Of a stretch of 57,216 nucleotides of DNA, positions 1-57,113 are shown piece by piece. The position numbers and the translations under genes were made by a program. Every line of letters starts with the position of its first letter. Within the stretch, counting starts at the first letter, position 1. Origin of the DNA: an uncultured Streptococcus sp. (GTDB taxonomy: Bacteria > Bacillota > Bacilli > Lactobacillales > Aerococcaceae); assembly GCA_963526005.1 (NCBI GenBank), contig CAURMP010000001.1, positions 1 to 57,216 of the forward strand. Reading direction: 5' to 3'. The notes below the pieces were generated by a model, which worked only from the letters and a program-made list of their open reading frames with translations, did not search any database and was not told where the DNA came from.

Positions 1-212
1 TTCATCGCAGTTGCTTGAATCTGTGCGAGTTCAACAGCATCCATGACCTCACTAGTGTCACCCATGACACGAGCTAAGAGTTCAGGAGTATTGTAGTCAT
101 TGTCCTTGTCCCATTGCCACCACTTGTCGTAGTCATCGAAAGGGTTGTAAGGATTGTCGAGTGTTGTTAACATTACATCAACAACAGTTGTCTGTGCTTG
201 ATAGTCTTCCAT
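1..212 (-). CDS. Conserved phage hypothetical protein, N-terminal part (continues across the junction into 57114-57216)
   Basis: ATG at 212 with GAAGGAG SD upstream; MEDYQAQTTVVDVMLTTLDNPYNPFDDYDKWWQWD...; open to position 1 and in frame with the window's right end. Confidence 0.8.
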   Translation of the reverse strand, partial: MEDYQAQTTVVDVMLTTLDNPYNPFDDYDKWWQWDKDNDYNTPELLARVMGDTSEVMDAVELAQIQATAM

Positions 213-230
213 GCCTTGCACTCCTTCCTA

Positions 231-2876
231 CTAGACTAGGTTCTGTATAGTAGAGACACCAACGCCAAGAGCCTCAGCTACTTCAGCATAGGTGTGACCC
301 TTCTTAAGCATAGACCTAGCTCTAGACGCATTAGCTAGGGACATAGCAGTCTCTTGTTTAGGAGTAGCCAGTTGTTTAACTCTATCACTGTCTGCAAAGC
401 GTAGTACATCAGTAAGCATCTTAGTACTAACAGCACCAGATTGAATCGCTTCCCACTCGTCATTCTCTATCTGAATCCTAGTCTTAGCACCATCAGCACC
501 AGTCTTAAGACGGGCTGCTGCAATAGCCTGTTGTTTAAGCTTCTTGAGTTGATCCTTCTGCATGTCAGGATCTCTCTTTTCAGCAATCACTTTGTTAGCT
601 ATTAGTTGCGCTTGTCTTTCTCTAGGAGAGTTAGCTAAAGCTAAGTTTAGCTTGTGTTGTAGAGATTCGACTTGTGTCTTGTACTTGACTTTAGCCTCTT
701 TGTTAACGACTAGATTAGGTGATGTCTGTACAACAGTGTTCGCCTTGTCACGCATCTTACCAAGGGCATTGATATAGTCACCATACATGTTTTCAATAGG
801 GGTGCCAGAACCTAGTTTCTTAGCGTCCTTAACTAATTCTACAACATGATCTGTAGAGATAGTTTTAGTCTTCTTGATAGTAGGCTTTAATCTAGGATTG
901 GCAGCTAGTTCCTCAGGAGACCTGTCCTTATACCAGGTTTCTAGGGTACGGTGTTCTGTCTTCGATCTAGAAATAAGAGTTGAAGCACCGCTTTTTATAT
1001 TACCAGAAATAACATCATAATGTTCTTGATATGTTTTTTTAAGATCCTTAATATTATGTTCTCTTTCTGAACGAGCAACATCCAAATTATGTTTCTCAGC
1101 ATCGATAACAACCATAGAATGTCGAACGGCTCTAGCAATTTCAGATTGAGAAGCTCCTTTTAAAGTCATATCAGTAATAAGATTCGAGACTTCACCCATC
1201 GTCTTTTGTTTTACTGTCCAGTTACCTTTTGAATCACGAGGTAATAACTTTTCATTAGGAGACCAATATTCTTTTGTATCAAAGTTCTTCAATTCTTTTA
1301 ATGAGCGACTAGTTTTAATTCCGTTTTTATTATTGGGAATAACCATAACTGTGTCACCATCAAAGTCGGCACCAGATAATTTACTTGCAACAGATGAATC
1401 AATACCGACTGCATCTTTTGCGCCCTTCATAAATTTAGCTGCGCCATTACCAAGTTTATTATTAACAGTTAATTCTGGTAATTCGAAAATACCACCATGA
1501 GGATAACGAACAAGAACAACCTTCTCACCATTCTTAAAGTTTGGTGCGTAAATTTCATTTGCTTTAATACCCGATAATGGTAATAAAACCTGACCTTTCA
1601 TTCTATCGAAACCAACTAGTTTCAAATTATGACGTTTGGTTGTAAGTCCATCAGCAAAGTCTTGCATCATTACTCGTTTAACTACAGGGTTTGTGAGATT
1701 ATTAATTTCATCAAACTCTTTTTGTAGTTTATCATAAGTGGCTTGGATCCTTCCCTTAACAAGAGCAGGTGGTTGTTTAGAAACAAACTGAGAAGATAAG
1801 GTCTTAGACCAAGTTCCCCAGTCACCTTCCTCATTTACTTTATTGATAGCACCTTTCTGTCCGTTAGGTTTGATTTGTGCACCAAATGGATTATCGGGAT
1901 CATCTTTAAGTTTCTTGAGTACATCTTGTTTAGAAGTTCCTTGATGTTTGTTGGTGTTGAATATGATGTCGACGCCTTTAGGGAAATCCTTAGGGTCACC
2001 ATAAACGGCCATACCTTTAAGATAATGTGTTCCACCTACACCAATACGAACTTGAGCGTAGCGAGAGCCATCTAGATCTAGACCTTTTGCTCCTGGACGA
2101 ATTTCCATAACACCATCTTTATCGGTACCACCTTGTTCAGCATAGCGAATATCAACACGCTTCCAATCAATATGTTCAATTGGTTTCAAACCTAATTTAG
2201 TATGACCATCTTCAGTCTTATAAATATTTGGTGGTTTGATTTCATGTTTATGTTCACGAACAATATCAGGATTTGATTCTTTGGTTAGGACTTTCATCTC
2301 AACCCAGTGATCATCGTTGGTAGCATTCTTAACATAAACTTTATGCATGTGATATCCATCGGATTCTAATTGTTGAACGGCACGTTTAAGCATGTTCTCA
2401 TTAATTCCAAGTTGTTGTGCTGCTCCCAAGCCTACGTCCAAATATGGATTCTCTTTAATTAAATCTTTCAAATCAGATTTAACTTGTTCCATACGATTGA
2501 CTTTCTGTTTGACAGAAGCGTCCATGTTCATACGAACTGTAGATTCAGGAATACCAGTTCTACGAGATATCTCAATAGAACCTAATCCCTGATCTGCTAG
2601 CTCTTGAATTCTGGAAATATTGTGTAAACGAATTTCTTGTTTAGCAATATTATTACGAGAACGGAATTCGGTTGTTGTAATACCAAGTTTCATTGAAATT
2701 TGAGTATCACTTAAACCATCCTTCCGATATTTTGCAACCTTGTCGGACCATGAAGTAGCCCGTTGATATGCATTCTCACCAGAACCCCATGCGTATCGTC
2801 CACTGTGTGGAACATTACCTTGGTGAGGAGTACCTCGGTGTAAGAGAATATCCTCATAAGCTTCTTGTAAATCCAT
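231..2876 (-). CDS. Single-subunit double-psi-beta-barrel RNA polymerase (YonO/cRdRP-like) with terminal HTH domains
   Basis: 881 aa; SGADFDGDTV catalytic motif preceded by VLVRYPHGG (R-x-P); HTH-like segments near the N-terminus (GLSDTQISMKLGI, GSIEISRRTGIPESTVR) and at the C-terminus (TYAEVAEALGVGVSTI). Confidence 0.8.
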   Translation of the reverse strand: MDLQEAYEDILLHRGTPHQGNVPHSGRYAWGSGENAYQRATSWSDKVAKYRKDGLSDTQISMKLGITTTEFRSRNNIAKQEIRLHNISRIQELADQGLGSIEISRRTGIPESTVRMNMDASVKQKVNRMEQVKSDLKDLIKENPYLDVGLGAAQQLGINENMLKRAVQQLESDGYHMHKVYVKNATNDDHWVEMKVLTKESNPDIVREHKHEIKPPNIYKTEDGHTKLGLKPIEHIDWKRVDIRYAEQGGTDKDGVMEIRPGAKGLDLDGSRYAQVRIGVGGTHYLKGMAVYGDPKDFPKGVDIIFNTNKHQGTSKQDVLKKLKDDPDNPFGAQIKPNGQKGAINKVNEEGDWGTWSKTLSSQFVSKQPPALVKGRIQATYDKLQKEFDEINNLTNPVVKRVMMQDFADGLTTKRHNLKLVGFDRMKGQVLLPLSGIKANEIYAPNFKNGEKVVLVRYPHGGIFELPELTVNNKLGNGAAKFMKGAKDAVGIDSSVASKLSGADFDGDTVMVIPNNKNGIKTSRSLKELKNFDTKEYWSPNEKLLPRDSKGNWTVKQKTMGEVSNLITDMTLKGASQSEIARAVRHSMVVIDAEKHNLDVARSEREHNIKDLKKTYQEHYDVISGNIKSGASTLISRSKTEHRTLETWYKDRSPEELAANPRLKPTIKKTKTISTDHVVELVKDAKKLGSGTPIENMYGDYINALGKMRDKANTVVQTSPNLVVNKEAKVKYKTQVESLQHKLNLALANSPRERQAQLIANKVIAEKRDPDMQKDQLKKLKQQAIAAARLKTGADGAKTRIQIENDEWEAIQSGAVSTKMLTDVLRFADSDRVKQLATPKQETAMSLANASRARSMLKKGHTYAEVAEALGVGVSTIQNLV

Positions 2877-5517: not shown

Positions 5518-5542
5518 TATTATGTGCCATGGAATTCCTGCG
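5518..5542 (-). promoter_or_regulatory. Phage promoter-like motif, copy 1
   Basis: CGCAGGAATTCCATGGCACATAATA; matches the 25-bp consensus with a variant 3' end. Confidence 0.65.
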
Positions 5543-5562: not shown

Positions 5563-8500
5563 TTATGCGGACTCTGGTGTCTTAATTTTCAGAGTTCCGT
5601 GATTAATACTGATAGCTGTTGGAGAATATGACTCTTGCAATTCGAGAGCGTCAATATAATCTTTAGGCATATCGTCTACAATCTTCGTAATATCTCCAAC
5701 CTTCATTATTTTTTTCAATCCATCGATTGCTACTTTATCATAGTAAGCGAAGTCAACATCCTCGATATTGAACTGATCTGTCTGTTTGAACAAATATCCT
5801 TTTGTTCCAGTGACAGATTTAAAGTTCTCATCATCTTCGGTCCACATACATTCTGCTCCAGACTTGGATGCATAAATAGAACCGACCTTACCAACAAACT
5901 CATCACCAAGATAAATATGGCCTTTGGATTGTTTAGTGATAAAGAAATCTCTATCGACTAATTCTTCTTTGGTCCAAACCCGTTTAAGCAAATATGTATT
6001 CGCATACTCTGCTCCAACAGGAGACCAGCTGTCATCCTCGAGCTGCGCAATATAAACCGCGTTATTGATTAACGCCATTCGTTTGTACGTGTGCTCATGA
6101 ACAAATTTGTAATTATATTCTGGTCGCGCACCGAAGTCTTCAATGAACTTAATAATCTTCTCATCTGCGTTTGGAACTTTCACAGAGTCGGTCTTGATAT
6201 GACAGACTTTGTATCCTTGTTCTTCGACAGCAAATTTCAAGTCGACCATAAATAACGCTCCACGTTTTGCAACAATATTATCAATATTGTCTGGGTGTTT
6301 GAATTTATTATCAAACTTAGCAGAAGTCATTCCATATACGGAGTTGATAACAATCTTCAATGCAGTAACCAATGGTTTCAAATATTCAGGGTTGTCAAGG
6401 AACGGAGCCAAGACACCATCGAACATTTGTTTTACTTCATCAATCTTATTATGTTTCAATAAAACACGAACCTTCAATAAGTCAGCATACCTTTGAGTAT
6501 ATGGTCCGAAATAGTTCATGTTAACTAGTGAGTTTGGATGCATAGACTCAACGTCTTCTAGTGCAATATTTTCATACACTCCAGGCTCAGCATATACAAA
6601 TCCACCTTCACCAGTTTCGAATCCACGGTACGTTGATTTACCGAACTTATATTCATAACCAGCGAATAATTTATTGAGGTGTACATAGTTAAACTTATCT
6701 TGCGGACGAGGGTCATCACCAAATATAAACTTGGCAGTGAGTTGGTTGTTCGTTGCATTCATTGAACCTTTGGCGATTGTGGCCAAGATTTCTCGAGCAA
6801 CATAGTCCGCATAAATAGCATCGAATAATTTCTCAGTTGCATCCACGTCATTGACGCAGTATTCCACAACCGTATCAATCAATTCGTCAGGTACTGGTTT
6901 ATCCCAAGGGATTTCCATCTCGACGTGTTTGATACCCAAATCAACTTCCCAACGTTTCAACGATTGTTTCTTTTGAGAGTATTCGTAAATATCCGTGTAG
7001 CTCAATTCATAAGCTGCAGCATACATACCACTCTTCGCATTCTTCTCATTGATGATGCGATGTGACTGAGTAAATAACTCCATATTGTTTGAACCCAACA
7101 AGCGAGCATAAAGAATATGGTTATCGTATCGACGATTGTTAAATCCTACCAGAGGGAATGTCATCAAATATTCAATCTGATCTGGAGTTGGGTTAATCCA
7201 ACGAGTGAACTCATCTTCATGATACTTCTTCCAAACCACAACAAATAAATTCGGATACACCTCAATATCGAAGAACACCAATTCTTCTTTTGGATATATC
7301 TTTGTGAAGTTTGTGAGCTTCGCTTCTGTCTTCCCTTCATCGTCTCTCATGGTTGACCATGGAATTTGTTGAAATACAGCGAGACAGTAATCCTTGTTGT
7401 TCGTAGAGCGAATAGCTCTCATAAATACAGCATGACGCAAGTCTGTAATATCATACTCCAATCCCATGTCAGCTGCTTTCTGAATTTCATGCGCAATAAA
7501 ATCAATTGTTGGTTTAGTATTCGGATGACTTGGTTCTTTACCTTCAATCATTCCTAGTTGACGCTTTACAAAATTACGGAGCGTCTTTTCCGTATATGTG
7601 ATTTCTTTGATCTGGTCGTACATCTCTCTATCCTTCTTCTCCTTCAACGGTAAGCCCGACGAAATATGAGATAGCTGGAGGTTGTTAGATGCTTTATCAA
7701 TTCGTCGTAAAGAGGCTTTACCTCGATACACTTTGATTTCAATATTCTTTTCGACCAAATTATCCAGCTCATTCACGTTACCATCATAAATATAATGCAG
7801 GTGAATCCCTTGCCCAGATTTTGAGACCTCCGCATAAGTCGGTGGAAATTTAGAAGCTGCCTCTTTGTTCAACTCCAAATTCTTTTTACCGTTCTCATCC
7901 TTCAAATCAAAATCAATAATAACATGATTGAGTGGAACCTTGACCCAGTGTAATTTGTTTGTCTGAATATCCGACAGCTTGGTCACGACATTATCCCATT
8001 TCTCCGATGGGTTGCCATTTCTCAAAGCTGCTTGTGCTGGATAATCTGCTGCGAGTTTATTAAAGACCTCATTGTGGTGGTCGAACTCCAACCAATTATC
8101 AGGAACAACCGTATCATCCGCTTTCGTTGTACCAACGACTCCTTCAGGAAATGCGATGTTCCATCTAAACCCTTTAAAATAATTATTGACGCGGGTGCCA
8201 TCAACATGACTGTCTTTCAGCATCGTATCAAAATATCGAAGTGCTTCGCGTTTGATCGTTGCTTTGTATCCATCCGTCTTCCATCCCATGTCTTCCAAGT
8301 ACTCACGATATAACTCACTGATTTGTTTCAGTGTAATACCGTTTTGCATATGGATAGCATTGCTTCGAATGAAGTCAAAGATATGGTCAGTCTGTTCGGC
8401 CATGTCTACGTCGAAATAATCGTCATAATAATCAAATCCTAATTCTTCAAACCTACTAATAGCCATGTGAGCAATATAAGGCAGTTCATACTTAATCTGA

Positions 8501-9438
8501 CTCATCAGTTGATTATACTTTGTATGACTAACCTTCTGTCCACTTGGGTTCACAACAATAGCTCTTCGAGTAATACCCGAATCTACGTTACGAACTTTGT
8601 ATCGTTGGTTTGAGGCTGTAATTAACAACCCAATAAATTTAACGTCATAAGGCTCTTTGAATTTCTTGTTGACAGATATGGTTTCATGACTTGTCAATTT
8701 CAACAACGGAGTGTCGTTATAAATATGACTGATGTCCGTATCCTCGTCAATCAATAATGGAACCTCTTGTATTTGTCCTGTTGCAAATTGGTCTGCACTT
8801 GTCAGCAATTTCAAATCAATCGTTCCACAGTAATCTTCAAACAGCATTCGGAATATCTTTAGGACCGTTCCCTTACCGCTACCTTTCGAACCATACAAAT
8901 ACATGAACTTCTCAATCTTGTACATCTTGTTCGTAAATAACGCTCCCATGAACCAGAGGATTTTGTCTAGCTCTTTTGGAAGATACAATGTCCCTATCAA
9001 TTCCTTAAACGCAACCGCTTCTCCTTCTTGCGGTGAATAAGTCAATTGCGTTGTTGCGTAATCCCTTCGCTGCATCTTGTGATCAGCAAATAAAACTTTC
9101 TGGTTGAAAGAAATATCACTTGCTTCACAAGCTTTACAGAAATCTGCAAATAAACGAAACTTACCAGCAGATGCTTTACGAATCTCTTTTACATCTATTC
9201 GTAACCCAGGACGACCATCTTCCAATTCTCTTGCTCTACGCCAAAGCAAAGAGTCAATATCATAAAATAGGTTCTTCTGTTTCGTGTCCCAGAAACTTCC
9301 ATTCCAATATGCGTAAAACTTGGAACCTTTAACTACCAAGTCTTTTGCGTCGCCAAATATAAAGTCAGGAGAAACCTCATAATCGAGCGCTCGATTATTG
9401 GAAGTGAACTTTTTCACAGACACATCTAAAAAATCCAC
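5563..9438 (-). CDS. Fused SF3 (D5-like) helicase / AEP primase / 3'-5' exonuclease / family B DNA polymerase
   Basis: GSKGSGKGT Walker A; VIIDFDLKD and SKSGQGIHLHY (AEP); FFDIEVYPN, GFNNRRYD and YCVNDV (Exo I-III); DVESMHPN, KIVINSVYG and IKTDS (PolB motifs A-C). Confidence 0.9.
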   Translation of the reverse strand: MDFLDVSVKKFTSNNRALDYEVSPDFIFGDAKDLVVKGSKFYAYWNGSFWDTKQKNLFYDIDSLLWRRARELEDGRPGLRIDVKEIRKASAGKFRLFADFCKACEASDISFNQKVLFADHKMQRRDYATTQLTYSPQEGEAVAFKELIGTLYLPKELDKILWFMGALFTNKMYKIEKFMYLYGSKGSGKGTVLKIFRMLFEDYCGTIDLKLLTSADQFATGQIQEVPLLIDEDTDISHIYNDTPLLKLTSHETISVNKKFKEPYDVKFIGLLITASNQRYKVRNVDSGITRRAIVVNPSGQKVSHTKYNQLMSQIKYELPYIAHMAISRFEELGFDYYDDYFDVDMAEQTDHIFDFIRSNAIHMQNGITLKQISELYREYLEDMGWKTDGYKATIKREALRYFDTMLKDSHVDGTRVNNYFKGFRWNIAFPEGVVGTTKADDTVVPDNWLEFDHHNEVFNKLAADYPAQAALRNGNPSEKWDNVVTKLSDIQTNKLHWVKVPLNHVIIDFDLKDENGKKNLELNKEAASKFPPTYAEVSKSGQGIHLHYIYDGNVNELDNLVEKNIEIKVYRGKASLRRIDKASNNLQLSHISSGLPLKEKKDREMYDQIKEITYTEKTLRNFVKRQLGMIEGKEPSHPNTKPTIDFIAHEIQKAADMGLEYDITDLRHAVFMRAIRSTNNKDYCLAVFQQIPWSTMRDDEGKTEAKLTNFTKIYPKEELVFFDIEVYPNLFVVVWKKYHEDEFTRWINPTPDQIEYLMTFPLVGFNNRRYDNHILYARLLGSNNMELFTQSHRIINEKNAKSGMYAAAYELSYTDIYEYSQKKQSLKRWEVDLGIKHVEMEIPWDKPVPDELIDTVVEYCVNDVDATEKLFDAIYADYVAREILATIAKGSMNATNNQLTAKFIFGDDPRPQDKFNYVHLNKLFAGYEYKFGKSTYRGFETGEGGFVYAEPGVYENIALEDVESMHPNSLVNMNYFGPYTQRYADLLKVRVLLKHNKIDEVKQMFDGVLAPFLDNPEYLKPLVTALKIVINSVYGMTSAKFDNKFKHPDNIDNIVAKRGALFMVDLKFAVEEQGYKVCHIKTDSVKVPNADEKIIKFIEDFGARPEYNYKFVHEHTYKRMALINNAVYIAQLEDDSWSPVGAEYANTYLLKRVWTKEELVDRDFFITKQSKGHIYLGDEFVGKVGSIYASKSGAECMWTEDDENFKSVTGTKGYLFKQTDQFNIEDVDFAYYDKVAIDGLKKIMKVGDITKIVDDMPKDYIDALELQESYSPTAISINHGTLKIKTPESA

Positions 9439-9439
9439 T

Positions 9440-9789
9440 AAATTCTACCTCCTTGTGCTGCACACAGTTTTTGCCCTCGATTCCCTATTGTTATTATATA
9501 CAGTTCACTTTTCAACTCATCCCTAATAACAATAGAAAATGGGAGATTTTCCTGTGCGATTTCGGGTTTTTTAAGTTTTCCCCATGTTTTTTCGTGCAGT
9601 TTCACTCAATTTACCTCAAATATTATAGTACTCTAAGTACCTGCACAAAAAATTTTCATGTGTTGAAGCCGATTTTTCGGGCAGCAAAATGAGGCAAAAC
9701 CAGCAGTTTTCCTAAAATATCCAGGCAATTCTACCATAATATCATAGGATTTTCTCCCAATTTCACCCCATAAAACACCCGTTTCGACC
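9440..9789. other. Large non-coding gap, candidate replication origin
   Basis: ~350 bp with no plausible gene, directly upstream of the replicase; 12-bp inverted repeat ctattgttatta (9485-9496) / taataacaatag (9524-9535); several gtgc/gcac-centred short repeats and T/A tracts. Confidence 0.5.
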
Positions 9790-10032: not shown

Positions 10033-10304
10033 TATTCTTCCTCTTTTCCTTTTATCGCAGCGTCAAATTCCCTATCGTTCAAGTAATAATGATACGAGAG
10101 AATATGCTCTTTACGAATAACTGCTTTCTCCATTGTTTGTGCGGTACGACCATACACAATGGTTACATAATTGTCAGTCATAGTAACTCTTCGAACATGT
10201 CGAAATACTTCTGGAAATTCACCAATCGTAAATCGTTTCTGTTCTTGATATTCTCTAGAGTAGACAGGCACCAATACTTTAAACTCAACTTCTGTGTTAC
10301 TCAT
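10032..10304 (-). CDS. Hypothetical protein
   Basis: Start MSNTEV at 10304 with AAGGAG SD, overlapping the lysin stop. Confidence 0.7.
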
Positions 10305-11220
10305 TAGCGAGTTTCTCCTTAGCATCCTTACCTACAGTCGTTGTGATCTTACCATCAGGTTCAACAGTAAATGCAGGTTTCTCTTCCAGACGTCCATCAG
10401 GAAGTAGCAAATACCAACCATCGTTGTAACGAATAAATGCGTCTGACTTCATATCGCCATTCGTAGCTTCCAAGTAGTACCAGTTATCATAGTATTTAAC
10501 CCAACCAGTAACCATCGCTCCACTACGGTCGAAGTAATACCATTTACCATTGATTTTCTTCCAGCTAGTAGCCATATATCCGTCTTTATCAAACCAATAC
10601 CATTTACCATCAGTGTGTTTGACCCAGTCGTTAGCTACCATATATCCATTCGCATCGAAGTAGAACCAAGATTTATTCTCCTCAATATATTCGAATTTGC
10701 TTGTAGGATAGCTTCCATTCGCATAGACGAACCAATATCCTTTAGAGTCGCTGTTCCATCCAGTCTTCACTTCTTCCACAACAGCATCTGGATTAGTCAA
10801 ACGGTATACATAGAAATATGGACGACCTGCATACAACCAAATATCATCATGGTCATTCACAGTGATTCCATCAAAGCGGTAGTTACAGTGGATGATGTTG
10901 TTTTCATCAATAAAGATACCGGTATGTCCACCAGCACCACTAGAATATCCACGACGTCCCCAGATGAAGATATCCCCACGTTGAGCGTCCCATGGAGTGT
11001 TCTCTGCAATCAATGTATATCCATTATCGATCAACCACTGGTGTTCGTATTCAGTATTCACTGCCCAACCAGCAGATGAAGCTCCACCTGAACGTAGAGC
11101 GTAGTAAATAGAGGATGAACAGTCGTAGCTGTCTTCACCATCACGGTATTCCATACTATAGCTTACTTGCCCTTTACGAGCGCTCATCCATGCAATAGCA
11201 GTTTCTGTATTAATTGTCAT
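10297..11220 (-). CDS. pal: Endolysin, N-acetylmuramoyl-L-alanine amidase (Amidase_5) with choline-binding repeats; Dp-1 Pal-like
   Basis: [13 protein letters not shown]...DSYDCSSS...GGHTG catalytic domain closely resembling Pal; C-terminal repeats [41 protein letters not shown]. Confidence 0.9.
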
Positions 11221-21148: not shown

Positions 21149-21173
21149 CATTATAGGCCATGCAATTTCTGCG
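21149..21173 (-). promoter_or_regulatory. Phage promoter-like motif, copy 2
   Basis: CGCAGAAATTGCATGGCCTATAATG. Confidence 0.8.
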
Positions 21174-21175
21174 AA

Positions 21176-21448
21176 TTACAGACCTTCTAGACAAGATTCT
21201 CTACTAGCAAATGGTTTCACTAGTACTAACCCTCGTTTCTTTCGTATCTTATTAATTTCTCTGTAATCTTCACTAATTCGATACTTCAACCATTTTTGTA
21301 AACTCATTCCATCCGCTCGGACTGTGAATGAATAATGGATAGGATTTGGAGCTGGGTGTTGTATATCATTAAAATAGACCCGCTCCATGCTATCGTATAA
21401 GGCATTAATATACGCCCTATCGCTATATGGTATGCTACTCATTGTCAT
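21176..21448 (-). CDS. Hypothetical protein
   Basis: 90 aa; ends just before promoter copy 2. Confidence 0.65.
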   Translation of the reverse strand: MTMSSIPYSDRAYINALYDSMERVYFNDIQHPAPNPIHYSFTVRADGMSLQKWLKYRISEDYREINKIRKKRGLVLVKPFASRESCLEGL

Positions 21449-21578
21449 CCCTTTCTAGATGAATGACATAATGAGTCTTTGGAATGGATACTTCCACTTC
21501 TTTATCACAAGAATGAAAAGCATTTGCTAACTCATTCATTTCATCATCCGACAGTCTCAAGTGAATATGGTGTTTCAT
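21435..21578 (-). CDS. Small hypothetical protein (47 aa)
   Basis: MKHHIHLRLSDDEMNELANAFHSCDKEVEVSIPKTHYVIHLERDDNE; AGGAG SD; ATGA overlap. Confidence 0.6.
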   Translation of the reverse strand: MKHHIHLRLSDDEMNELANAFHSCDKEVEVSIPKTHYVIHLERDDNE

Positions 21579-22090
21579 GTTAAATAATCTTCTCCTATAG
21601 TTTTTCTAAGCCAGGTGAGAGTATCCCACCCGTTTGCATCTACTCGGTCGTAGATTGTATCCAAAATATCTAAGAAATATCTGATCTTTTCAGGGGCAAC
21701 CTTATCATCTTCGTGATGATCAAAAGGTTCGAACCACAGGTTTTCGCCTATGACACTGAGTTGATCGTCATAATAAAAGCCTTCGGCAAGGCAACTGACT
21801 AACTCATCCACGATTTCTCTTGTGATATTCCACAAACAGAGTCGTGAATCGATCTTGATAGTCTCATCGGGCACCATTAGTAACCCGAAAATATACCGTC
21901 TATACTCCGTGTCTAATCTTCTACGACTCCAATTACGTATCAAACGCTCAATATACCAATCGTCTATGAAAAACATCTCTTGTAACGGTAGGTTTTTAAC
22001 GTTAGCTACCACCGTATCATAGAAATCACCTTTAGACAATATGAGGGTATATTGTCCTGTAGAGTTCATCGGTTCAGCCTCCATGCTCAT
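21575..22090 (-). CDS. Hypothetical protein (paralog of 22074-22577)
   Basis: 171 aa; N-terminal similarity to its neighbour. Confidence 0.75.
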   Translation of the reverse strand: MSMEAEPMNSTGQYTLILSKGDFYDTVVANVKNLPLQEMFFIDDWYIERLIRNWSRRRLDTEYRRYIFGLLMVPDETIKIDSRLCLWNITREIVDELVSCLAEGFYYDDQLSVIGENLWFEPFDHHEDDKVAPEKIRYFLDILDTIYDRVDANGWDTLTWLRKTIGEDYLT

Positions 22091-22577
22091 TGTATTCTTC
22101 TACGACTTTGTCGTAATATGCTCCAAACTCATCCTTCAATTCTTTAGCGCTCATATACGCTCTCTTATTATCGGGATTAGTCTCGATACGATCTGCGGTC
22201 TCGCTAATCAATTCGTATAATAATTTGTAGTTCTCATGATCTACATCATGATTACCAAATACAGTTTTGTAATAAGATGTCTCCAACATCGATAATAGAA
22301 TATTGTTTACAATCTTACGAGCGATTCTAAAGTAATATAAATCCATATCCAAAATATGCATCTCTTCTGGTAGAGTCATAATGAAATGGAAATATTGTTT
22401 GTAATCTACTTGCGCAGGACTAACACCTGTTTCGGGATCTGTGTCTGTCCACGCAGCGATATACTTGTCAATTTCTTTTTGTGGCATCAACAGAAAATCA
22501 TCTAACGGCATGGCTTTCACCATATTAATCACCGTTTGTTTGAATTCCGCAGATGTCTTAACAATTGGTCTAGTCAT
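22074..22577 (-). CDS. Hypothetical protein (paralog of 21575-22090)
   Basis: 167 aa; AGGAG SD. Confidence 0.75.
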   Translation of the reverse strand: MTRPIVKTSAEFKQTVINMVKAMPLDDFLLMPQKEIDKYIAAWTDTDPETGVSPAQVDYKQYFHFIMTLPEEMHILDMDLYYFRIARKIVNNILLSMLETSYYKTVFGNHDVDHENYKLLYELISETADRIETNPDNKRAYMSAKELKDEFGAYYDKVVEEYNEHGG

Positions 22578-22926
22578 TTTTTACTCCTGCGTATAAATCG
22601 TGATAGTGTTGTTCAATCATTTTGATTGTCGACATACGTTTAAATGTACCATAGCAATACATTTTGTATGTCCATTTACCATCATTAATATCATATGAAA
22701 GTTTATCCATACTCATAATCAAACAGCGCTCAGGTAATTTATACGCTAGAATATCTGGACCATCAAAAATGTTTTTTAGATCTAGAATAATTACATCCGA
22801 ATGCATTTGATGGAAATTGGTATATCCATCCATAGCTAGTTTCTGGTTATCCGTTGTGATACGGATACAAAATGATCTTGGTGATTTGAATTTGTCTACT
22901 GACACTCTGTAAAATGGTTCTGCCAT
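22570..22926 (-). CDS. Hypothetical protein (paralog of 22926-23267)
   Basis: 118 aa; YKMYCYG motif. Confidence 0.7.
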   Translation of the reverse strand: MAEPFYRVSVDKFKSPRSFCIRITTDNQKLAMDGYTNFHQMHSDVIILDLKNIFDGPDILAYKLPERCLIMSMDKLSYDINDGKWTYKMYCYGTFKRMSTIKMIEQHYHDLYAGVKND

Positions 22927-23267
22927 TATCTTCTACCCCCGTAAAATTTTTCAAAAAATAGTTTAAGTACGTCCATTTTTGAATCTAATTCATTATTTCC
23001 ACAACAATATAGTTTATAGTAATATGTGTTTTTAGAGTCATCCAAAACAATTGGATCAATATCTATAATGATGAATTTATCAGGATATACCTCTATTTCT
23101 TCTAAAAATTTTTTAGTTTCTAAAAATTCAACATTATCTCTAATACATTTATTGTTCTTAAATGAATCCTTTAGTATTTTTAAATCGTCGTTTTCTATTC
23201 TCAATACAAAAGCATTTTCGTCATTTGGACTTACATGTCCTGTTACTTTACACAATGAGTTTATCAT
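22926..23267 (-). CDS. Hypothetical protein (paralog of 22570-22926)
   Basis: Start MINSLC at 23267 after GGAGG; YKLYCCG motif. Confidence 0.7.
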   Translation of the reverse strand: MINSLCKVTGHVSPNDENAFVLRIENDDLKILKDSFKNNKCIRDNVEFLETKKFLEEIEVYPDKFIIIDIDPIVLDDSKNTYYYKLYCCGNNELDSKMDVLKLFFEKFYGGRR

Positions 23268-23279
23268 TATCTTACCTCC

Positions 23280-23309
23280 AAAAAAAAGAAAGGGATGCGT
23301 AATCCCTTT
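23280..23309 (-). terminator. Intrinsic terminator overlapping the stop of 23308-23598
   Basis: AAAGGGAT-TACGC-ATCCCTTT followed by CTTTTTTTT. Confidence 0.8.
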
Positions 23310-23598
23310 ACTTAAATAGTTTTGATCCAATTGTACTCCATAGTTTGGAACCAATAATATTGAATTCCTCGAATTTCAGAACAGCACTTGCTCCGAGAAT
23401 ATCCACTACAGTCTTGAATAATTGTTCTGGGGTTACCTGATTCTTATACTGTTCATTCTTAACAGCAATAAGTTTCGCTAACTTCAGATTTAAATCCTGG
23501 ACTTCAGCGTTATCCTCCGATAGTGCTATCTGAATTTTCAAATTCTCAATTTGATAATCCAATCCATCATACAATACTAACATAGCTAATTTATGCAT
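23308..23598 (-). CDS. Hypothetical protein (monocistronic cassette)
   Basis: 96 aa between promoter copy 3 and a terminator. Confidence 0.8.
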   Translation of the reverse strand: MHKLAMLVLYDGLDYQIENLKIQIALSEDNAEVQDLNLKLAKLIAVKNEQYKNQVTPEQLFKTVVDILGASAVLKFEEFNIIGSKLWSTIGSKLFK

Positions 23599-23614
23599 AG
23601 TTTTACCTTCCTTT

Positions 23615-23639
23615 CATTATAGCATAGGGAAATCCTGCG
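23615..23639 (-). promoter_or_regulatory. Phage promoter-like motif, copy 3
   Basis: CGCAGGATTTCCCTATGCTATAATG. Confidence 0.8.
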
Positions 23640-23952
23640 GTCTAGGTACTTCTATCTGTTCGAGCGTTATGACAGTAAAACATTTATATACAGAATCTCT
23701 ATATAATTCTTTAGAAATACGTGTCAATTTATATGGTCGTCCACATAATTCTGCAAATATGATCGAATTTGAATTGTAATATTCATTTTCTAACAAATCT
23801 GAATGTAATGCCTCAATTACCTTCATATGTGAAGGTAAATACGGTTTAATTCTTAGATGGTCTCCCCGGTGTTCCACGTCTTCACAAGTATAATGTGATA
23901 TTGGAATAGAATATACTTTGTCATGATATTTAATAATCAGTCTACTAATCAT
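23617..23952 (-). CDS. Hypothetical protein (paralog of 23962-24267)
   Basis: MISRLIIKYHDKVYS; stop codon lies inside promoter copy 3. Confidence 0.7.
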   Translation of the reverse strand: MISRLIIKYHDKVYSIPISHYTCEDVEHRGDHLRIKPYLPSHMKVIEALHSDLLENEYYNSNSIIFAELCGRPYKLTRISKELYRDSVYKCFTVITLEQIEVPRPQDFPML

Positions 23953-23961
23953 ACTATCACC

Positions 23962-25155: not shown

Positions 25156-25185
25156 AATCTTACTTACCTTTCCAGTATATTTAAC

Positions 25186-25214
25186 AAAAAGAAAGGAGAA
25201 TATTATTCTCCTTT
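25186..25214 (-). terminator. Intrinsic terminator
   Basis: AAAGGAGAAT-AAT-ATTCTCCTTT followed by CTTTTT. Confidence 0.8.
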
Positions 25215-25302: not shown

Positions 25303-25315
25303 TTTATTCTCCTTT

Positions 25316-25495: not shown

Positions 25496-25522
25496 TTTAG
25501 TGATCCTCCTATAATTTTATTT

Positions 25523-25547
25523 CATTATAGGGTGTGTAATTCCTGCG
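25523..25547 (-). promoter_or_regulatory. Phage promoter-like motif, copy 4
   Basis: CGCAGGAATTACACACCCTATAATG. Confidence 0.8.
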
Positions 25548-25872: not shown

Positions 25873-25884
25873 AATAAGTCCTTT

Positions 25885-26330: not shown

Positions 26331-26353
26331 AGTTTATACCTCCTTCTAATGAC

Positions 26354-26526: not shown

Positions 26527-26529
26527 AAC

Positions 26530-26761: not shown

Positions 26762-26786
26762 CATTATAGGATGTGTAAATTATGCG
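26762..26786 (-). promoter_or_regulatory. Phage promoter-like motif, copy 5
   Basis: CGCATAATTTACACATCCTATAATG. Confidence 0.8.
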
Positions 26787-27157: not shown

Positions 27158-27182
27158 CATTATAGGATATGTAATTCCTGCG
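27158..27182 (-). promoter_or_regulatory. Phage promoter-like motif, copy 6
   Basis: CGCAGGAATTACATATCCTATAATG. Confidence 0.8.
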
Positions 27183-27624: not shown

Positions 27625-27650
27625 GTCGCCCTCCTTTTTGAAAAAAAATA

Positions 27651-27720
27651 AAGAAGAGAGGGAGTTGAACCCTCGACCCTCCGTACGATGCCGGATGCTC
27701 TCCCGCTGAGCTATCTTCTT
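27651..27720 (-). tRNA. tRNA-like RNA with a non-canonical anticodon arm (no assignable anticodon, no encoded CCA)
   Basis: AAGAAGA-TA-GCTC-AGCGGGA-GAGC-A-TCCG-GCATCGTA-CGGA-GGGTC-GAGGG-TTCAACT-CCCTC-TCTTCTT; perfect acceptor, D and T arms. Confidence 0.8.
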
Positions 27721-27745
27721 CATTATACACCATGTAATTTCTGCG
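27721..27745 (-). promoter_or_regulatory. Phage promoter-like motif, copy 7
   Basis: CGCAGAAATTACATGGTGTATAATG, abutting the 5' end of the tRNA-like element. Confidence 0.8.
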
Positions 27746-28198: not shown

Positions 28199-28223
28199 CA
28201 TTATAGGACATGTAAAATATGCG
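28199..28223 (-). promoter_or_regulatory. Phage promoter-like motif, copy 8
   Basis: CGCATATTTTACATGTCCTATAATG. Confidence 0.8.
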
Positions 28224-28301: not shown

Positions 28302-28697
28302 TTAATTCATATATTGTGAGGCCTTTTTACGTAGTTGTTCTGCTCTATTGTCTTTAGCGTTAGAAACTAATGATAGACGTCCAGCTTTATTTGTATTAAA
28401 TGTCATAGCTCGACCTCTTGATTTCGACGCCAAATCATACATTTCTGATAATACTGCACGATCTTTAGTAGCTGACATATGTTTGCGCATGGCTTTAAAT
28501 TGAAGTCTATACCCTTTGGCTTGTCTTTTTGTGACCATTCCATCTTTCTTCAATCGTTTGACAAGTGATTTCATGGTCTTATATTGCGATGCTTCATTAC
28601 GAACAATTTGACTACGACTCTTAATACCCCATCGCATCCCACGAATTCCATAGTGTTCTATAACATCATTATAAGATTGAATACCGATATAGTTCAT
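28302..28697 (-). CDS. Basic HxGxxGMxWG-tag protein (DUF7211-like)
   Basis: DVIEHYGIRGMRWG; K/R-rich body. Confidence 0.8.
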   Translation of the reverse strand: MNYIGIQSYNDVIEHYGIRGMRWGIKSRSQIVRNEASQYKTMKSLVKRLKKDGMVTKRQAKGYRLQFKAMRKHMSATKDRAVLSEMYDLASKSRGRAMTFNTNKAGRLSLVSNAKDNRAEQLRKKASQYMN

Positions 28698-28711
28698 ATA
28701 TTAGATTCCTT

Positions 28712-29251
28712 CTAGAATTTTCCTCCAGCATTAACATATGCTTTAGCACGAGTAGCTTTAGCTTTATTAATATCGTTCTTATAACGTGTATTTAGACCAA
28801 CATATGCATTACTCATTTTCTTCAGAGCTTCGCCTTTACGAACTCGGTAATCTTGATGAGATTCTCCAGCGGCTTTGTTACGTTTTGTAAAGAAAGCATC
28901 ATTTCCATATTTCTTAAAGATCTTTTCATCTCCAGTAGAGTGTTTATCTAAAGCTTTACGCTTATCTGATTTATATTTCTTATTCGCTTTAACCATATCG
29001 TCAACAACTCGGTTACTGTATTCCATATGTCTAGAACTTACGCTCAAAGGACTTCCAGTCATACCTCGAGTTTTACGACGTGCAACAGCATAAAAATTAG
29101 GGTGACGTAGTTTACGTTTGACCATACCGCCATAAGCAGATCCCCAACGTTTCATACGTTGTCCCCACTTCATCCCTTTAACGCCGTGGTGTTGCAAGAT
29201 ATCTTCAAAGCTATCAGTTTGATATAGTTCATTTTCTTCAATAATAATCAT
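28712..29251 (-). CDS. Basic HxGxxGMxWG-tag protein (DUF7211-like)
   Basis: DILQHHGVKGMKWG; K/R-rich body. Confidence 0.8.
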   Translation of the reverse strand: MIIIEENELYQTDSFEDILQHHGVKGMKWGQRMKRWGSAYGGMVKRKLRHPNFYAVARRKTRGMTGSPLSVSSRHMEYSNRVVDDMVKANKKYKSDKRKALDKHSTGDEKIFKKYGNDAFFTKRNKAAGESHQDYRVRKGEALKKMSNAYVGLNTRYKNDINKAKATRAKAYVNAGGKF

Positions 29252-49654: not shown

Positions 49655-51538
49655 TTATCCTCCAGGAACTCCTGTACGAGCAGCTTCAGATCCAGCTGCA
49701 GCACCAGCTGCTGGTTTGAAGTAAACTGCCGCTTTAGCACGAGTAAGGGCACCAGACAAGCGAGTTTCGATCAAGTATTTCTGTTTGTTGTAGTCAATAT
49801 CGAAGTGTTCGAATGTGTTCACTTCACCACCACGGTTAGTACCGATTTGGTAGTCAGCAAGGTTGACCATAATCAATTCTTCAGGTTTCAAAAAGTTTGT
49901 TTCAACGATTTCAGCCACACCGAACAATGAAGCAAGATATTCTTTAGTTGCGGGTTGTTGGCCACCAAATACCCATTGTTCATTCTTGTTACGCAAGAAG
50001 CGAAGTTTTGTCAAGAATAGCGGGTTGATGTACAATGATGGCATACCTGATCCAAGCATCTTAGTCTTTTGTTCAGCGACTGTTTGGAAGATATCCAATA
50101 GCATGTTTGGATTGTAAGTTGCTTTGATTGTGTAGAAGTCATCATCTTTTGTGATTGGACGAATACGATCTTCTTTAATTTTGTTTGCGTCACCTGTTTG
50201 ACGACCATCTGACACCAAGATTGCTTGCGCAATTTCATCATTCAGTTTGATACGCATTTCTTGGTTGAAGAACGCAGCAACATTCAATTGTTGACCAATA
50301 TCGATAGCATCGTCACGGTCAATAGATTGTTTTTTATAGATCGTTTGAGGATCTGTTTTACGAGAAAGGAATGAGAGAATTTGTTCTTTCTTCTCAGTTC
50401 CTTTGATGTAACCTTTAGCGCGAAGTTGTTCATCAGTCAAGTCAGAAAGGTCTGTCATGATTGATTTAACAAACGCAGTAGGAACTTTAGTTACGCGGCT
50501 AAGAATATGTTCTGTAGCAGTGTTAGGTGAGTAAATTACTTGAACACCATTTTGCAGTTGGTGATCAGGGAACAACAATTCAATATTGTTCATTGAGTGT
50601 TGAAGAACGTCACCATTTTCCATTTCAGCAAGTACTTGACCTACTTTACGGCCTGATTTCTGAGCGGCTTCAAGAGCAGCCGTCAATGAATGACGGATTT
50701 CTTCATCACGATTAGGTGCAGATTGTTCGAATGCATTGTAGTGCATAGTTTGTCCTCCTAGGGCAGATTGTTCAATGTTGTTATCTGAATCGGTATCAGA
50801 ATCGACTTCTTCGTCATCAGATTCAGCAAGTTCATTAAGAACTTCAGTTACACGTGCATCAACAGCTTCATCAAACTGTTCATTCACAGTTTGTTCCATG
50901 TTTTCAAGGGCTTCATTTACAGAAGCTTCTGTAAGAATAGCAACGGCTTCTTGTTGGTCTTCGTTAAGAGTCGCCAATACACCGTCCATAATGTCTGCTG
51001 CTTGATCATCATCTGCGTGTTGAATGCGGTCAAACAAACTTACTCGCTCTTGTCCAATCAAGACATCATTTGCAGAATGTAAAAGTTGATCACTTTCCAT
51101 AATGATTCTTTCTCCTTCATCGGGATTATCCGAGTGCGTTAGCACTTCAGTAATAACAGCTCCCGGATTAGCTCCGGCAACTACAAGTGATACTTCATAG
51201 ATGTTACCATGGATTACGTCATTATTCGGAGTACGCTTAATACGGTTAGCTCCAATCGACATATGCCAGATATCTCTATGCTGTACAAGTTCTTTGGCAT
51301 TTTGGGCATTTGGTGTATTATTGAAATAACCTTGTCCATAAACGCCATCCTCCGCATGGTGCAACAACACATGACCAATGATATTTTCAGGCGTGCTTGG
51401 GTCATGAGACCAAACAAGCGGAACCTTCTTTCCATCATTCTCACGGAATGCTCCATGACGGATCACGACACCATCGGTACACCGCATGTCGTTACGGGTT
51501 ACATAACCCGCGAAATCATACTTGGGATGTTTATCCAT
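49655..51538 (-). CDS. Prohead protease / scaffold / major capsid protein fusion
   Basis: HK97-type protease (VPLVWSH, MSIGA, EVSLVVAGANPGA); acidic linker; capsid domain (FDIDYNKQKYLIETRLSGAL); start MDKH after GGAGG. Confidence 0.9.
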   Translation of the reverse strand: MDKHPKYDFAGYVTRNDMRCTDGVVIRHGAFRENDGKKVPLVWSHDPSTPENIIGHVLLHHAEDGVYGQGYFNNTPNAQNAKELVQHRDIWHMSIGANRIKRTPNNDVIHGNIYEVSLVVAGANPGAVITEVLTHSDNPDEGERIIMESDQLLHSANDVLIGQERVSLFDRIQHADDDQAADIMDGVLATLNEDQQEAVAILTEASVNEALENMEQTVNEQFDEAVDARVTEVLNELAESDDEEVDSDTDSDNNIEQSALGGQTMHYNAFEQSAPNRDEEIRHSLTAALEAAQKSGRKVGQVLAEMENGDVLQHSMNNIELLFPDHQLQNGVQVIYSPNTATEHILSRVTKVPTAFVKSIMTDLSDLTDEQLRAKGYIKGTEKKEQILSFLSRKTDPQTIYKKQSIDRDDAIDIGQQLNVAAFFNQEMRIKLNDEIAQAILVSDGRQTGDANKIKEDRIRPITKDDDFYTIKATYNPNMLLDIFQTVAEQKTKMLGSGMPSLYINPLFLTKLRFLRNKNEQWVFGGQQPATKEYLASLFGVAEIVETNFLKPEELIMVNLADYQIGTNRGGEVNTFEHFDIDYNKQKYLIETRLSGALTRAKAAVYFKPAAGAAAGSEAARTGVPGG

Positions 51539-51558: not shown

Positions 51559-52872
51559 TTATTTGCCGCCATTTTGAAGATCCTCTTCACTGTACTGAGG
51601 TACTTCCTCATAGTACTGTTGACCATCAGGGGACTCGACCGACCCAGGTATAGACACATCTTGTCTAGAATCCGAAATATTAGGATTATACAATTGATCT
51701 GCCATTGGATCATCCATAGGACCATAACCAATGACTGCACGGAATTCATTAGAAGTAAGGATTCTATTTCTAAGAAGAGAATCTCCAATTGTTGCCAACT
51801 GACTAGTTGGAACCAACTTGAATGGATCACTGTATGTCACGATGCGATGACCTTGGGTATAGCCAGTCTTCGTGATAAATTTTCTTTGAAATTCTTCTTG
51901 AATTCTAGTCACAATCGGATCGATTGTTCGCGTATAATAGTTTTGCATCTGTTCAGCAGTGGCAGTACCATCAAATACAGCTTTTGTCAAACCGATCTGA
52001 CTAAGCAATTCTTCAGTCAAATATTTAATCTCATCCATAAGATTAGAATTGATTTGTCGATTCAACTGAGTAATCTTTTCATCTGCTGCAATATATGCAA
52101 TCCCTAAATTGGAATCCTGCAATTGTTTCTCAATATCTTTGACGCGTCCGTCGGCTTCTTGTTTCTTAATATCATTTCGGACCGGAACTGGCAATTGGAG
52201 AATCATGTTCCATTTGTTTGCTACAGAATCCAAATCTTGTTTATCAAGAATTGATAATTTCTGAATTAAACGATTCATGGTAGGGTTGTCCGTTCCTAGA
52301 ATATTAGCCAATGGGTTCTCAATGATCGCACACATTCGTTTAGGGATAATAATCTCTGAGAAATCACCCTTGTTTTCGTTGTATACTTTCACTCGAACTT
52401 TTGTAGGAAACCATTCGATGACCTTACCAACTCGCATTGCTTTGATATCATACGAGTCAGAATGCATAGGGTCAACAGTTGCCTCAAGTGGAACTGCCAC
52501 AACGACACCTTCATCAAATAAAGAATAAACCAAATCATGGAAGAAGTCTGTGCTAGACTGATCCGTATTCATCTCCACTTCAAACAATCGTTGAAGCGCC
52601 GAGTTATATTGAACCTCTTGGTTCTGTTTATCGGCAGCTAATTTGACGTGTTGAAATTTAACCATAGATGCATCCATAGCAATTCGGTTAAAGATCATGG
52701 ATGAAATTGATGATCTGGCATATGATCTTGACGGAATAGCATTATTTGGATTTAATGCTCTTGGCTCCGTTGTAAGTTGATATTGAGTTTGTGTTTCTAC
52801 CAATGATGGTTTATTAGTATCGTTGGTAAACATTGACCAAGCATGTTGTAGTCCATCAGTAAAAATACTCAT
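51559..52872 (-). CDS. Portal protein
   Basis: 437 aa after the terminase; SMIFNRIAMD, YYTRTIDP and ILTSNEFR motifs. Confidence 0.9.
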   Translation of the reverse strand: MSIFTDGLQHAWSMFTNDTNKPSLVETQTQYQLTTEPRALNPNNAIPSRSYARSSISSMIFNRIAMDASMVKFQHVKLAADKQNQEVQYNSALQRLFEVEMNTDQSSTDFFHDLVYSLFDEGVVVAVPLEATVDPMHSDSYDIKAMRVGKVIEWFPTKVRVKVYNENKGDFSEIIIPKRMCAIIENPLANILGTDNPTMNRLIQKLSILDKQDLDSVANKWNMILQLPVPVRNDIKKQEADGRVKDIEKQLQDSNLGIAYIAADEKITQLNRQINSNLMDEIKYLTEELLSQIGLTKAVFDGTATAEQMQNYYTRTIDPIVTRIQEEFQRKFITKTGYTQGHRIVTYSDPFKLVPTSQLATIGDSLLRNRILTSNEFRAVIGYGPMDDPMADQLYNPNISDSRQDVSIPGSVESPDGQQYYEEVPQYSEEDLQNGGK

Positions 52873-54630: not shown

Positions 54631-55125
54631 CTATTTGAAAATTTTCACAGTTTCATTAAACGCATGTCCAGTATCTCTACCTAATGTGGCAAGGTTCTTA
54701 GTCAATTGCGAGTAATTTTTTGGATTCTTTGTTAGCAAATCTTTAGTGATTGTCTGAACAGCAGTATCTCTGATAAGTTTACCAGTTTCTCTACCGAATG
54801 AACCAAATGATTTTTGGCCACCAGGATTAGACAATCGATTTGATCGTTGAACCTGTTCTGCGAAATCGTTCTCCAAGCGCAATCGATTAGTTGCTTCTCT
54901 CAAGTCATGAGAAGTCATCATATGTCTACTATGATACTTCTTATTCCAAGCAGCTCCTGCTTTACGACTTGCTTTTTTCAACTGACGCATCTTTGAACGC
55001 TCTGATCGATTCTTACGGAATCCCCATCGCATTCCTTTGATGCCGAAGTGCTCGATGATATCATCGCTTTCGTTTCCTTTAATCGCGTGGAGTAGTTCTG
55101 GATTCATTAAGTCGTTCTGGATCAT
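54631..55125 (-). CDS. Basic HxGxxGMxWG-tag protein
   Basis: ELLHA...DIIEHFGIKGMRWG; K/R-rich. Confidence 0.8.
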   Translation of the reverse strand: MIQNDLMNPELLHAIKGNESDDIIEHFGIKGMRWGFRKNRSERSKMRQLKKASRKAGAAWNKKYHSRHMMTSHDLREATNRLRLENDFAEQVQRSNRLSNPGGQKSFGSFGRETGKLIRDTAVQTITKDLLTKNPKNYSQLTKNLATLGRDTGHAFNETVKIFK

Positions 55126-56945: not shown

Positions 56946-57030
56946 AGTTAGTTCTCCTTTCAAGTGACATCGACCGCAGTTTAAAAGACCTAAATTGGAC
57001 TTTTAAACCCCTCCGGAGAAATTTCAGAGT

Positions 57031-57039
57031 GGTGCGGCG
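57031..57039 (-). other. Candidate cos site (9-nt 3' overhang CGCCGCACC)
   Basis: GC-rich island in the gap between the last and first genes, flanked by hairpins; resembles the CGCCGNNCT ends recalled for related phages. Confidence 0.55.
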
Positions 57040-57113
57040 ATGCAAAGGGGTCGGGAATTTTCGCGACCCTCCCCCTATGGGGTGTCTAATTTTTTATTTT
57101 TAAATTAAACTTA

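Follow-up and report, generated by a model that had tools for sequence, protein, structure and literature searches.

The stretch of DNA analysed here (the window) is contig CAURMP010000001.1 of GenBank assembly GCA_963526005.1, 57,216 nucleotides filed under an uncultured Streptococcus sp., and it carries a phage gene for an 881-residue protein that is almost certainly a single-chain, two-barrel RNA polymerase of the Lactococcus phage 1706 family (Table 1). The main genes of the window all lie on the minus strand. The window is one whole contig and, compared with OR148986, a near-identical GenBank phage from saliva (99.8% protein identity in the polymerase), a closed circle cut inside its last gene with a 3-base overlap, which rules it out as the flank of a prophage. 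The gene order, namely helicase, VRR-Nuc, exonuclease, polymerase, a small conserved gene and the right cos end, is that of the PHROG 4291 / 1706 orf75 family. A first-pass annotation, made from the letters of the window, had called the polymerase gene the second-to-last, and this is correct when counted from the inferred cos end, the window itself being a permuted circle with its last gene split. Given the cos-like site, the polymerase is second-to-last in the virion DNA; in the circular form it leads into the structural block. Overhangs at cos are described in PMC4110766.

The DFDGD signature is unique to the polymerase open reading frame (ORF) in a six-frame scan, with one unrelated DLDGD elsewhere, and VRYP, which had been placed about 45 residues ahead of GADFDGD, precedes it by 46 (starts at residues 456 and 502). 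We aligned 150 sequences, comprising the window protein, 148 of 150 listed representatives and P0002; the relatives P0131 and P0177 were omitted for their long N-terminal extensions, which add about 160 residues ahead of the tag described below. Most of the aligned sequences are 40-48% identical to the window polymerase. Q275, R277, K287, G288, R457, P459, D504, D506, G507 and D508 are invariant in 150/150, D254 is kept in 148 (the other two have Glu) and K310 in 144. Judging from motif order and the aligned range (residues 233-717 to 682-1186), D254, R277 and K287 would be the equivalents of D709, R738 and K743 of QDE-1, and the conserved residues fit eight residues named in the available part of PMC2919709.

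An AlphaFold model built from 75 sequences reached a predicted local distance difference test score (pLDDT) of 84.5 and a predicted template modelling score (pTM) of 0.76, with residues 1-40 at low confidence. Foldseek matched this model to QDE-1 (E = 2.9e-10), P74-26 gp62 and P23-45 gp64. With VIA-align, residues 233-717 superposed on QDE-1 (Z = 19.6, 358 aligned, root-mean-square deviation (rmsd) 4.2) and maize RDR2 (Z = 19.6), then on P23-45 gp64 (Z = 14.8, 359 aligned, rmsd 4.8), P74-26 gp62 (Z = 14.3) and the large subunits of cellular RNA polymerases (Z about 11). The fold thus matches two-barrel enzymes including QDE-1 and the catalytic residues are conserved, which bears out the earlier reading of a double-psi-barrel single-chain polymerase. 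The phage protein phi14:2 gp66 was not among the fold matches listed, and crAss-like entries were weakly matched in another search. At the sequence level, the RNA-dependent RNA polymerase (RdRP) model PF05183 aligned with residues 493-609 (E = 1.5e-4) at 21 bits, below its gathering cut-off of 23.8, a search of PDB sequences returned only helix-turn-helix (HTH) matches, and NCBIfam gave no match.

The first-pass annotation had named SPbeta YonO among the polymerases with this catalytic signature; in sequence, similarity to YonO is limited to the catalytic loop (best BLASTP E = 1.3; hhalign probability 0.7%), and these values rule out the polymerase as a YonO orthologue. The two are alike in being single-chain phage two-barrel RNA polymerases of about 100 kDa whose genes lie just upstream of the late cluster. 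In the available passages of PMC5467207, YonO is DNA-dependent and transcribes late genes only, its promoter being left undefined. Thermus phage P23-45 has two DNA-dependent RNA polymerases which, according to the portions of PMC10770324 at hand, are gp64, absent from virions, and gp96, delivered as a tape-measure fusion. Both are likewise compact single-chain two-barrel enzymes, with promoter motifs of their own, whereas the window polymerase is a free-standing protein of about 880 residues that has HTHs at either end and carries a candidate tag for loading into heads, and is 12-16% identical to them. The eukaryotic cellular RdRPs QDE-1 and RDR2 are the best structural matches (Z = 18-19.6) with a common Q-x-R...KG and R-x-P...DxDGD layout, but the window enzyme stands in a phage context with HTHs and a class of double-stranded DNA promoters rather than in RNA silencing. 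Because YonO and gp64/gp96 are DNA-dependent, the 'RNA-dependent' label in databases is no evidence of template. The window polymerase is very probably DNA-dependent too, a view backed by the non-sigma-A promoter class described below.

The gene is a new member of an already described, predicted polymerase family rather than a new find; the first-pass annotation was right about the enzyme, and the family was already in print (2010, 2021). The PHROG 4291 match is full-length (residues 4-879 to profile positions 5-903 of 909, E = 2.1e-296) and identity to 1706 orf75 is 37.6%. By tblastn the family occurs in 250 of 50,697 phage records, 249 of them covering at least 80% of the polymerase length, and the GenBank phage matches fall by host into Arthrobacter (95), Gordonia (55), Streptomyces (54), Lactococcus (13) and others. 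In a large protein set 7,998 of 8,000 scored candidates match the family, as do 752 clusters formed at 50% identity (E ≤ 1e-30). Ruprich-Robert and Thuriaux (2010, PMC2919709) placed the 1706 protein in one of five YonO-like families and, in the text available, termed its role an enigma and considered RNA amplification or other polymerisation possible. Koert et al. (bioRxiv 10.1101/842583) noted, in the part available, the DxDGD motif, N- and C-terminal HTHs and a potential RNA polymerase. GenBank members are mostly labelled 'HTH DNA-binding protein' or 'RNA-dependent RNA polymerase', both of which we judge to be mislabels. The window polymerase thus belongs with 1706 orf75, PHROG 4291, the actinophage 'HTH DNA-binding domain protein' and the FP_oengus putative RNA polymerase; with orf75 it shares DxDGD, the HTHs at both ends and the penultimate position before cos, and it differs from that family only in its probable host, a mitis-group Streptococcus. 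The passages on the 1706 family at hand tie no promoter, start site or packaging tag to the polymerase. No bench or biochemical test of the family was found in the literature searched, which covered few subscription papers, and searches on DUF7211/GMKWG, cluster AU transcription, ReqiPoco6 proteomics, 1706 structural proteins and the near-identical saliva phage gave nothing relevant.

HTH-like motifs had been noticed at both termini, and Pfam together with the model finds three N-terminal modules and one C-terminal. Pfam HTH models match residues 94-115, 153-175 and 857-880, the last with PF13384 (E = 1.6e-8) and Sigma70_r4_2 PF08281 (E = 1.7e-6), and the predicted model holds an extra HTH-like unit at about residues 43-76. 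No sigma factor or separate HTH regulator turned up in the ORFs scanned. That the HTHs may replace a sigma factor, as had been suggested, is supported by a class of promoter-like elements with the consensus CGCA-N7-CA-N5-TATAAT, of which the window has eight copies with at most one mismatch (six exact), all on the coding strand, against 0.46 expected; none of 100 shuffles reached eight. Seven of them (21150-28223) stand before small genes, and the structural block has none. A -35 hexamer 16-18 nucleotides upstream of TATAAT was found in only one of these seven, the copy at 5542 was not picked up by a sigma-70 scan, and a generic sigma-70 scan of the window gave chance level.

The motif recurs in relatives. 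ReqiPoco6, a Rhodococcus phage from another host phylum, has 13 copies on the coding strand, and Circum has eight there with CGCG and one on the other strand. A relaxed pattern gave 13 matches in 1706 (mostly with TATAGT, one probably by chance), ten in P078 with a TTTA-type first box and two in RavenPuff. The polymerase operon has a copy ahead of it in ReqiPoco6, Circum, 1706 and P078; at that place RavenPuff showed none. Of 49 IMG/VR loci that extend 6 kb or more upstream, 18 have a strict copy on the coding strand versus three on the opposite strand, 12 of the 18 being close relatives. Of 33 IMG/VR contigs of at least 40 kb, 15 were searchable, and 14 of these motif-bearing contigs encode the polymerase. 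In the lactococcal members the first box is replaced (TTTA in P078, CACA in 1706) and 1706 has TATAGT, a natural set for mapping HTH specificity; HTH sequence showed no clear link to the first box across six phages, which are few for a test.

The transcription start is suggested by the tRNA-like RNA that follows one copy. ARAGORN places a tRNA-like gene at 27649-27721 and Rfam a tRNA at 27650-27720 (50.7 bits), its closing stem begins with the base that directly follows the TATAAT of the 27722-27745 copy, and a terminator-like hairpin with a U-tract lies immediately upstream of that copy. Transcription from sigma-A promoters starts 6-8 nucleotides after the -10 box. A sigma-A start that far past TATAAT would cut the acceptor stem, so the motif does not fit a sigma-A -10 box. 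Scanning IMG/VR for the motif followed by TAGCTCAG, with gaps up to 23 allowed, gave 65 matches in 62 loci; the gap from TATAAT to tRNA position 1 is at most 4 in 49/65 matches (33/44 distinct) and never exceeds 8. Of 45 distinct RNAs, 40 had a U-tract that could be located and were scored (5 were dropped): the closing stem begins at +1 in 21 of the 40 and no later than +3 in 35, a U-tract lies just upstream of the motif in 31, and the stems show compensatory changes. Stems at +1 to +3, few -35 boxes and the polymerase on motif contigs together point, indirectly and among related sequences, to the phage enzyme as the reader of the motif, with +1 at the end of TATAAT. We consider it likely that this polymerase reads the motif, and the sequences argue, indirectly, that RNA starts at the first base after TATAAT and not at sigma-A spacing. 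As for the RNAs themselves (L006-L067), they lack CCA, their anticodon arms are irregular or missing and vary among close relatives (CAT, CGT, TGT, none), and the acceptor stem also serves as their terminator; in appearance they are closer to decoys or small regulatory RNAs than to functional tRNAs.

The N-terminal tag of the polymerase is conserved across the 150-sequence alignment (L/I11 in 141, H13 in 146, G15 and G31 in 149, W30 in only 100). Five small ORFs of the window match the DUF7211 model PF23847 at 28.5-38.9 bits (cut-off 27), and these tagged proteins are small and basic (isoelectric points 10.2-10.7). L/I stands two residues before His in 23/31 cases within residues 136-345 of the capsid polyprotein from five phages, against 31/186 in other window proteins; in the window alone it does so for 5/7 scaffold His (p = 0.002, post hoc). 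In each of the five phages the last such site borders the same capsid start; the polyprotein had no PDB match. In GenBank, 1706 orf75 bears the label 'structural protein'; within that phage only orf7 (twice) and orf75 show the tag pattern, and both are labelled structural. A leave-one-out codon score sorted 13/13 structural and 13/13 non-structural genes (at least 150 codons) correctly; the polymerase gene scored +0.052, above all 26 scored genes, and the two genes just upstream scored -0.017 and -0.005. The first-pass annotation had guessed that the enzyme might be packaged, and this guess gains support from the 1706 label, the structural codon usage and the tag common to probable head proteins. 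From these sequence features we consider the polymerase to be probably packaged in the virion.

Table 1. Features of the window discussed in the text, with positions in window coordinates.
Feature	Position	Strand	Basis or remark
Single-chain two-barrel RNA polymerase gene	231..2876	-	881 residues; PHROG 4291 / 1706 orf75 family
Candidate head-loading tag and prohead-protease site (L-x-H-x-G ... SGRY-x-W-G)	2784..2846	-	N-terminal residues 11-31; low model confidence
N-terminal HTH, HTH and winged-HTH-like modules, candidate promoter readers	2283..2750	-	about residues 43-198; Pfam and model
Two-barrel catalytic core	726..2180	-	residues 233-717; D254, Q275-x-R277, K287-G288, K310, R457-x-P459, D504-x-D506-G-D508
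VRYP motif	1500..1511	-	residues 456-459; R457, P459
DFDGD metal-binding loop	1353..1367	-	GADFDGD = residues 502-508
C-terminal sigma4-like HTH	234..344	-	about residues 845-881; Pfam and model
Small acidic gene phrog_4303	1..221	-	103 residues; continues across window join at 57216
Cos-like site (TGCATCGCC...)	57024..57044	-	matches physical right ends of 1706, ReqiPoco6, P078, Circum and RavenPuff
Promoter-motif copy (CACATAAT variant)	5519..5542	-	heads SSB (single-stranded DNA-binding protein)-helicase-nuclease-exonuclease-polymerase operon
Promoter-motif copy	21150..21173	-	
Promoter-motif copy	23616..23639	-	sole middle copy with passable sigma-70 -35 box
Promoter-motif copy	25524..25547	-	
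Promoter-motif copy	26763..26786	-	
Promoter-motif copy	27159..27182	-	
Promoter-motif copy before tRNA-like RNA	27722..27745	-	behind terminator-like hairpin
Promoter-motif copy, first of middle cluster	28200..28223	-	just after terminator 28274-28294 closing structural block
tRNA-like RNA	27650..27721	-	ARAGORN, Rfam; runs into U-tract; CCA not encoded; anticodon arm irregular
Two small basic proteins (131, 179 residues) with DUF7211 tags	28302..29251	-	tags N-terminal
Two small basic proteins with DUF7211 tags	45832-46521, 46884-47303	-	
Small basic DUF7211-tagged protein	54631..55125	-	adjoins terminase; positional homologue of 1706 orf7 ('structural')
Scaffold region of protease(S78)-scaffold-capsid polyprotein	50525..51154	-	repeated L/I-x-H sites; last site abuts likely mature capsid start
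L-x-H site at portal N-terminus	52843..52851	-	in 5/5 portals compared

On balance we favour a model in which a DNA-dependent RNA polymerase is made late, packaged in the head, injected, and then reads CGCA-N7-CA-N5-TATAAT promoters. The enzyme would be made with the structural proteins; its gene lies just before cos and so leads into the structural operon on the circularised genome. A simple terminator scan of the coding strand listed none between 5542 and the window end, nor across 54000-57216, and read-through over cos could therefore occur. The L-x-H-x-G...WG tag, like the DUF7211 tags, would direct the polymerase to the prohead, and there the S78 protease would probably cleave it after L/I-x-H, as in scaffold and portal. 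Once injected together with the phage DNA, the polymerase would bind the motif, probably via its HTHs, and melt the TATAAT box, with RNA starting at or beside the purine that directly follows. Its transcripts would cover the small host-takeover genes and tRNA-like RNAs of the middle block, as well as the operon ending in its own gene, with possible read-through past cos into the structural genes.

Phage T4 has a capsid-targeting sequence and its gp21 protease cleaves after L/I-x-E, while the T7 promoter ends in TATA|G. The arrangement proposed here would resemble T4 in having a short tag at the N-terminus and protease sites that recur on scaffold, portal and cargo, although the site here ends in His and the conserved part of the tag follows the site; it would resemble T7 in a melted TATA-like box directly before +1, although the polymerase is two-barrel and not T7-like. 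More tentatively, and with somewhat less confidence than for the window itself, the whole family may consist of self-sufficient, virion-loaded RNA polymerases of about 100 kDa whose fused HTHs read a rigid 24-bp double-stranded DNA promoter without sigma, with a T7-style start and loading through a His-site tag common to other cargo proteins. If so, phages of Firmicutes and Actinobacteria would have in common a conserved, minimal polymerase of cellular type that acts with T7-like autonomy, and it would show a two-barrel core recognising promoters without sigma. For Gram-positive hosts it would also supply a new orthogonal polymerase-promoter pair, together with a peptide for loading capsids. 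With a promoter consensus, a predicted +1 and a candidate tag, the family becomes directly testable at the bench and by proteomics on cultured phages.

Several observations weigh against this model. TATAAT is a perfect sigma-A -10 box, and 31/49 IMG/VR loci have no strict motif within 8 kb upstream of the polymerase, with a relaxed search finding TATTAT or TGTTAT third boxes in only some of these 31. One complete-looking motif contig (G152, 91%) gave no polymerase match. The RNAs and loci counted above are related sequences, so the counts are not independent, and read-through followed by RNase P trimming may yield the same 5' ends of the tRNA-like RNAs. Pfam DUF7211 (PF23847) does not match the polymerase tag, and the scaffold region was picked after the L/I-x-H pattern had been seen. 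The 'structural' label of 1706 orf75 reportedly goes back to virion mass spectrometry by Garneau in 2008; it is not a specific label, since 1706 orf62 and orf71, untagged and outside the module, are also called structural, and the ReqiPoco6 structural label was copied from 1706. The paper on Gordonia phage Vardy (PMC9671010), from the same phage group, describes a repeated, mid-genome, TATAAT-containing 50-bp intergenic motif and reads its TATAAT as a sigma-70 -10 box; against that reading, the RNA stems at +1 argue for a phage-polymerase promoter.

A good deal less probable than packaging and injection is an unpackaged, YonO-like DNA-dependent enzyme, made mid-phase by the host RNA polymerase and transcribing the late structural operon from near cos; the motif would then be a host sigma-A promoter aided by a phage activator, or be read by the phage enzyme once the host polymerase has made it. 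The position of the gene immediately before cos and the structural block would suit such a role, as would the restriction of YonO to late genes (PMC5467207) and the absence of P23-45 gp64, the closest phage structure, from virions (PMC10770324), both as given in the available text. The consensus -10 box and the lack of motif copies in the structural block point the same way. Set against this, the tRNA-like RNAs would lose their 5' stem with a start at +7, a passable -35 box accompanies only 1/7 middle copies, relatives have TGTTAT or TATTAT third boxes, and the 1706 orthologue is labelled structural while the window gene has the tag and structural codon usage.

We regard it as improbable that the protein is a two-barrel nucleotidyltransferase that makes no mRNA and instead primes replication, copies RNA templates or pulls DNA into the cell, the promoters serving another factor. 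QDE-1 and RDR2 are the closest structures, PHROG and RefSeq use the label 'RNA-dependent RNA polymerase', the available text of PMC2919709 kept RNA amplification or other polymerisation possible, and the gene adjoins those for a helicase, a nuclease and SSB. However, the phage already has a primase-polymerase, both tested RdRP-like phage lineages (YonO; P23-45 gp64/gp96) transcribe DNA according to the passages cited above, the four HTH-like modules suit recognition of double-stranded DNA, and the scanned ORFs yielded no sigma factor or other HTH regulator.

The phrog_4303 gene follows the polymerase in 66/67 loci with enough downstream DNA (13/80 were too short) and does likewise in each of the five reference phages that have annotation at this end of the genome. 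Its protein has an invariant L-x-T-x-DNP...W...D, its model gave no fold match above Z = 3.4 and no Atlas match, and a predicted complex with polymerase residues 41-881 (score 0.00, mark 0.32) gave no verdict and was not used as evidence. This constant linkage makes its product the most plausible candidate if a packaged polymerase needed a separate promoter factor and used its HTHs only for non-specific DNA binding or as a clamp, but we think this improbable, as 1706 orf76 is not labelled structural and has no tag and the phrog_4303 protein appears from its sequence to be acidic and not DNA-binding in character.

The description of the phage as streptococcal stands on its lysin, which resembles Streptococcus phage lysins (82% identity to S. 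infantis phage 23TH, 81% to S. mitis phage SM1, 72% to Dp-1); no other host evidence was found. The host is, on this sequence likeness, a probable mitis-group Streptococcus. Within a bacterial assembly bin, the phage forms the largest contig (GC content 37.5% versus 39.5%); it was probably co-binned. We rejected the view that the bin is shown to be the host: there was no spacer-like match, only a 35-bp match in the lysin region. phrog_4291 is found in 0/139 other genomes of the bin's family. The rest of the bin contains choline-binding-repeat genes, none linking it to the phage. The lysin itself is of Pal type (Amidase_5 plus choline-binding repeats; 10297-11220, minus strand) and lies amid non-structural genes, far from the holin at 56192-56539.

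Some further features of the window were observed. An AAA(A/T)TTYYCCGGRG element occurs next to cos (57010-57024) and at the end of the structural block (28243-28257), on the minus strand; with one mismatch there are four matches against 0.08 expected, and the left ends of 1706, ReqiPoco6 and RavenPuff begin with similar sequences; it may be a terminase or late-control site. This phage group has a second signature gene (phrog_4210; 5563-9438, minus strand), which encodes a 1291-residue fusion of superfamily 3 (SF3) helicase, primase and family-B-like DNA polymerase. The 351-bp intergenic gap before it (9439-9789, minus strand), with A-tracts and repeated GCAC-like elements, is a candidate replication origin, and 1706 has a comparable repeat-rich gap directly before orf75. 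Finally, a 1916-residue tail protein (31840-37590, minus strand) carries a very basic, charged low-complexity insert at about residues 270-410 in its Tal-like N-terminal part.

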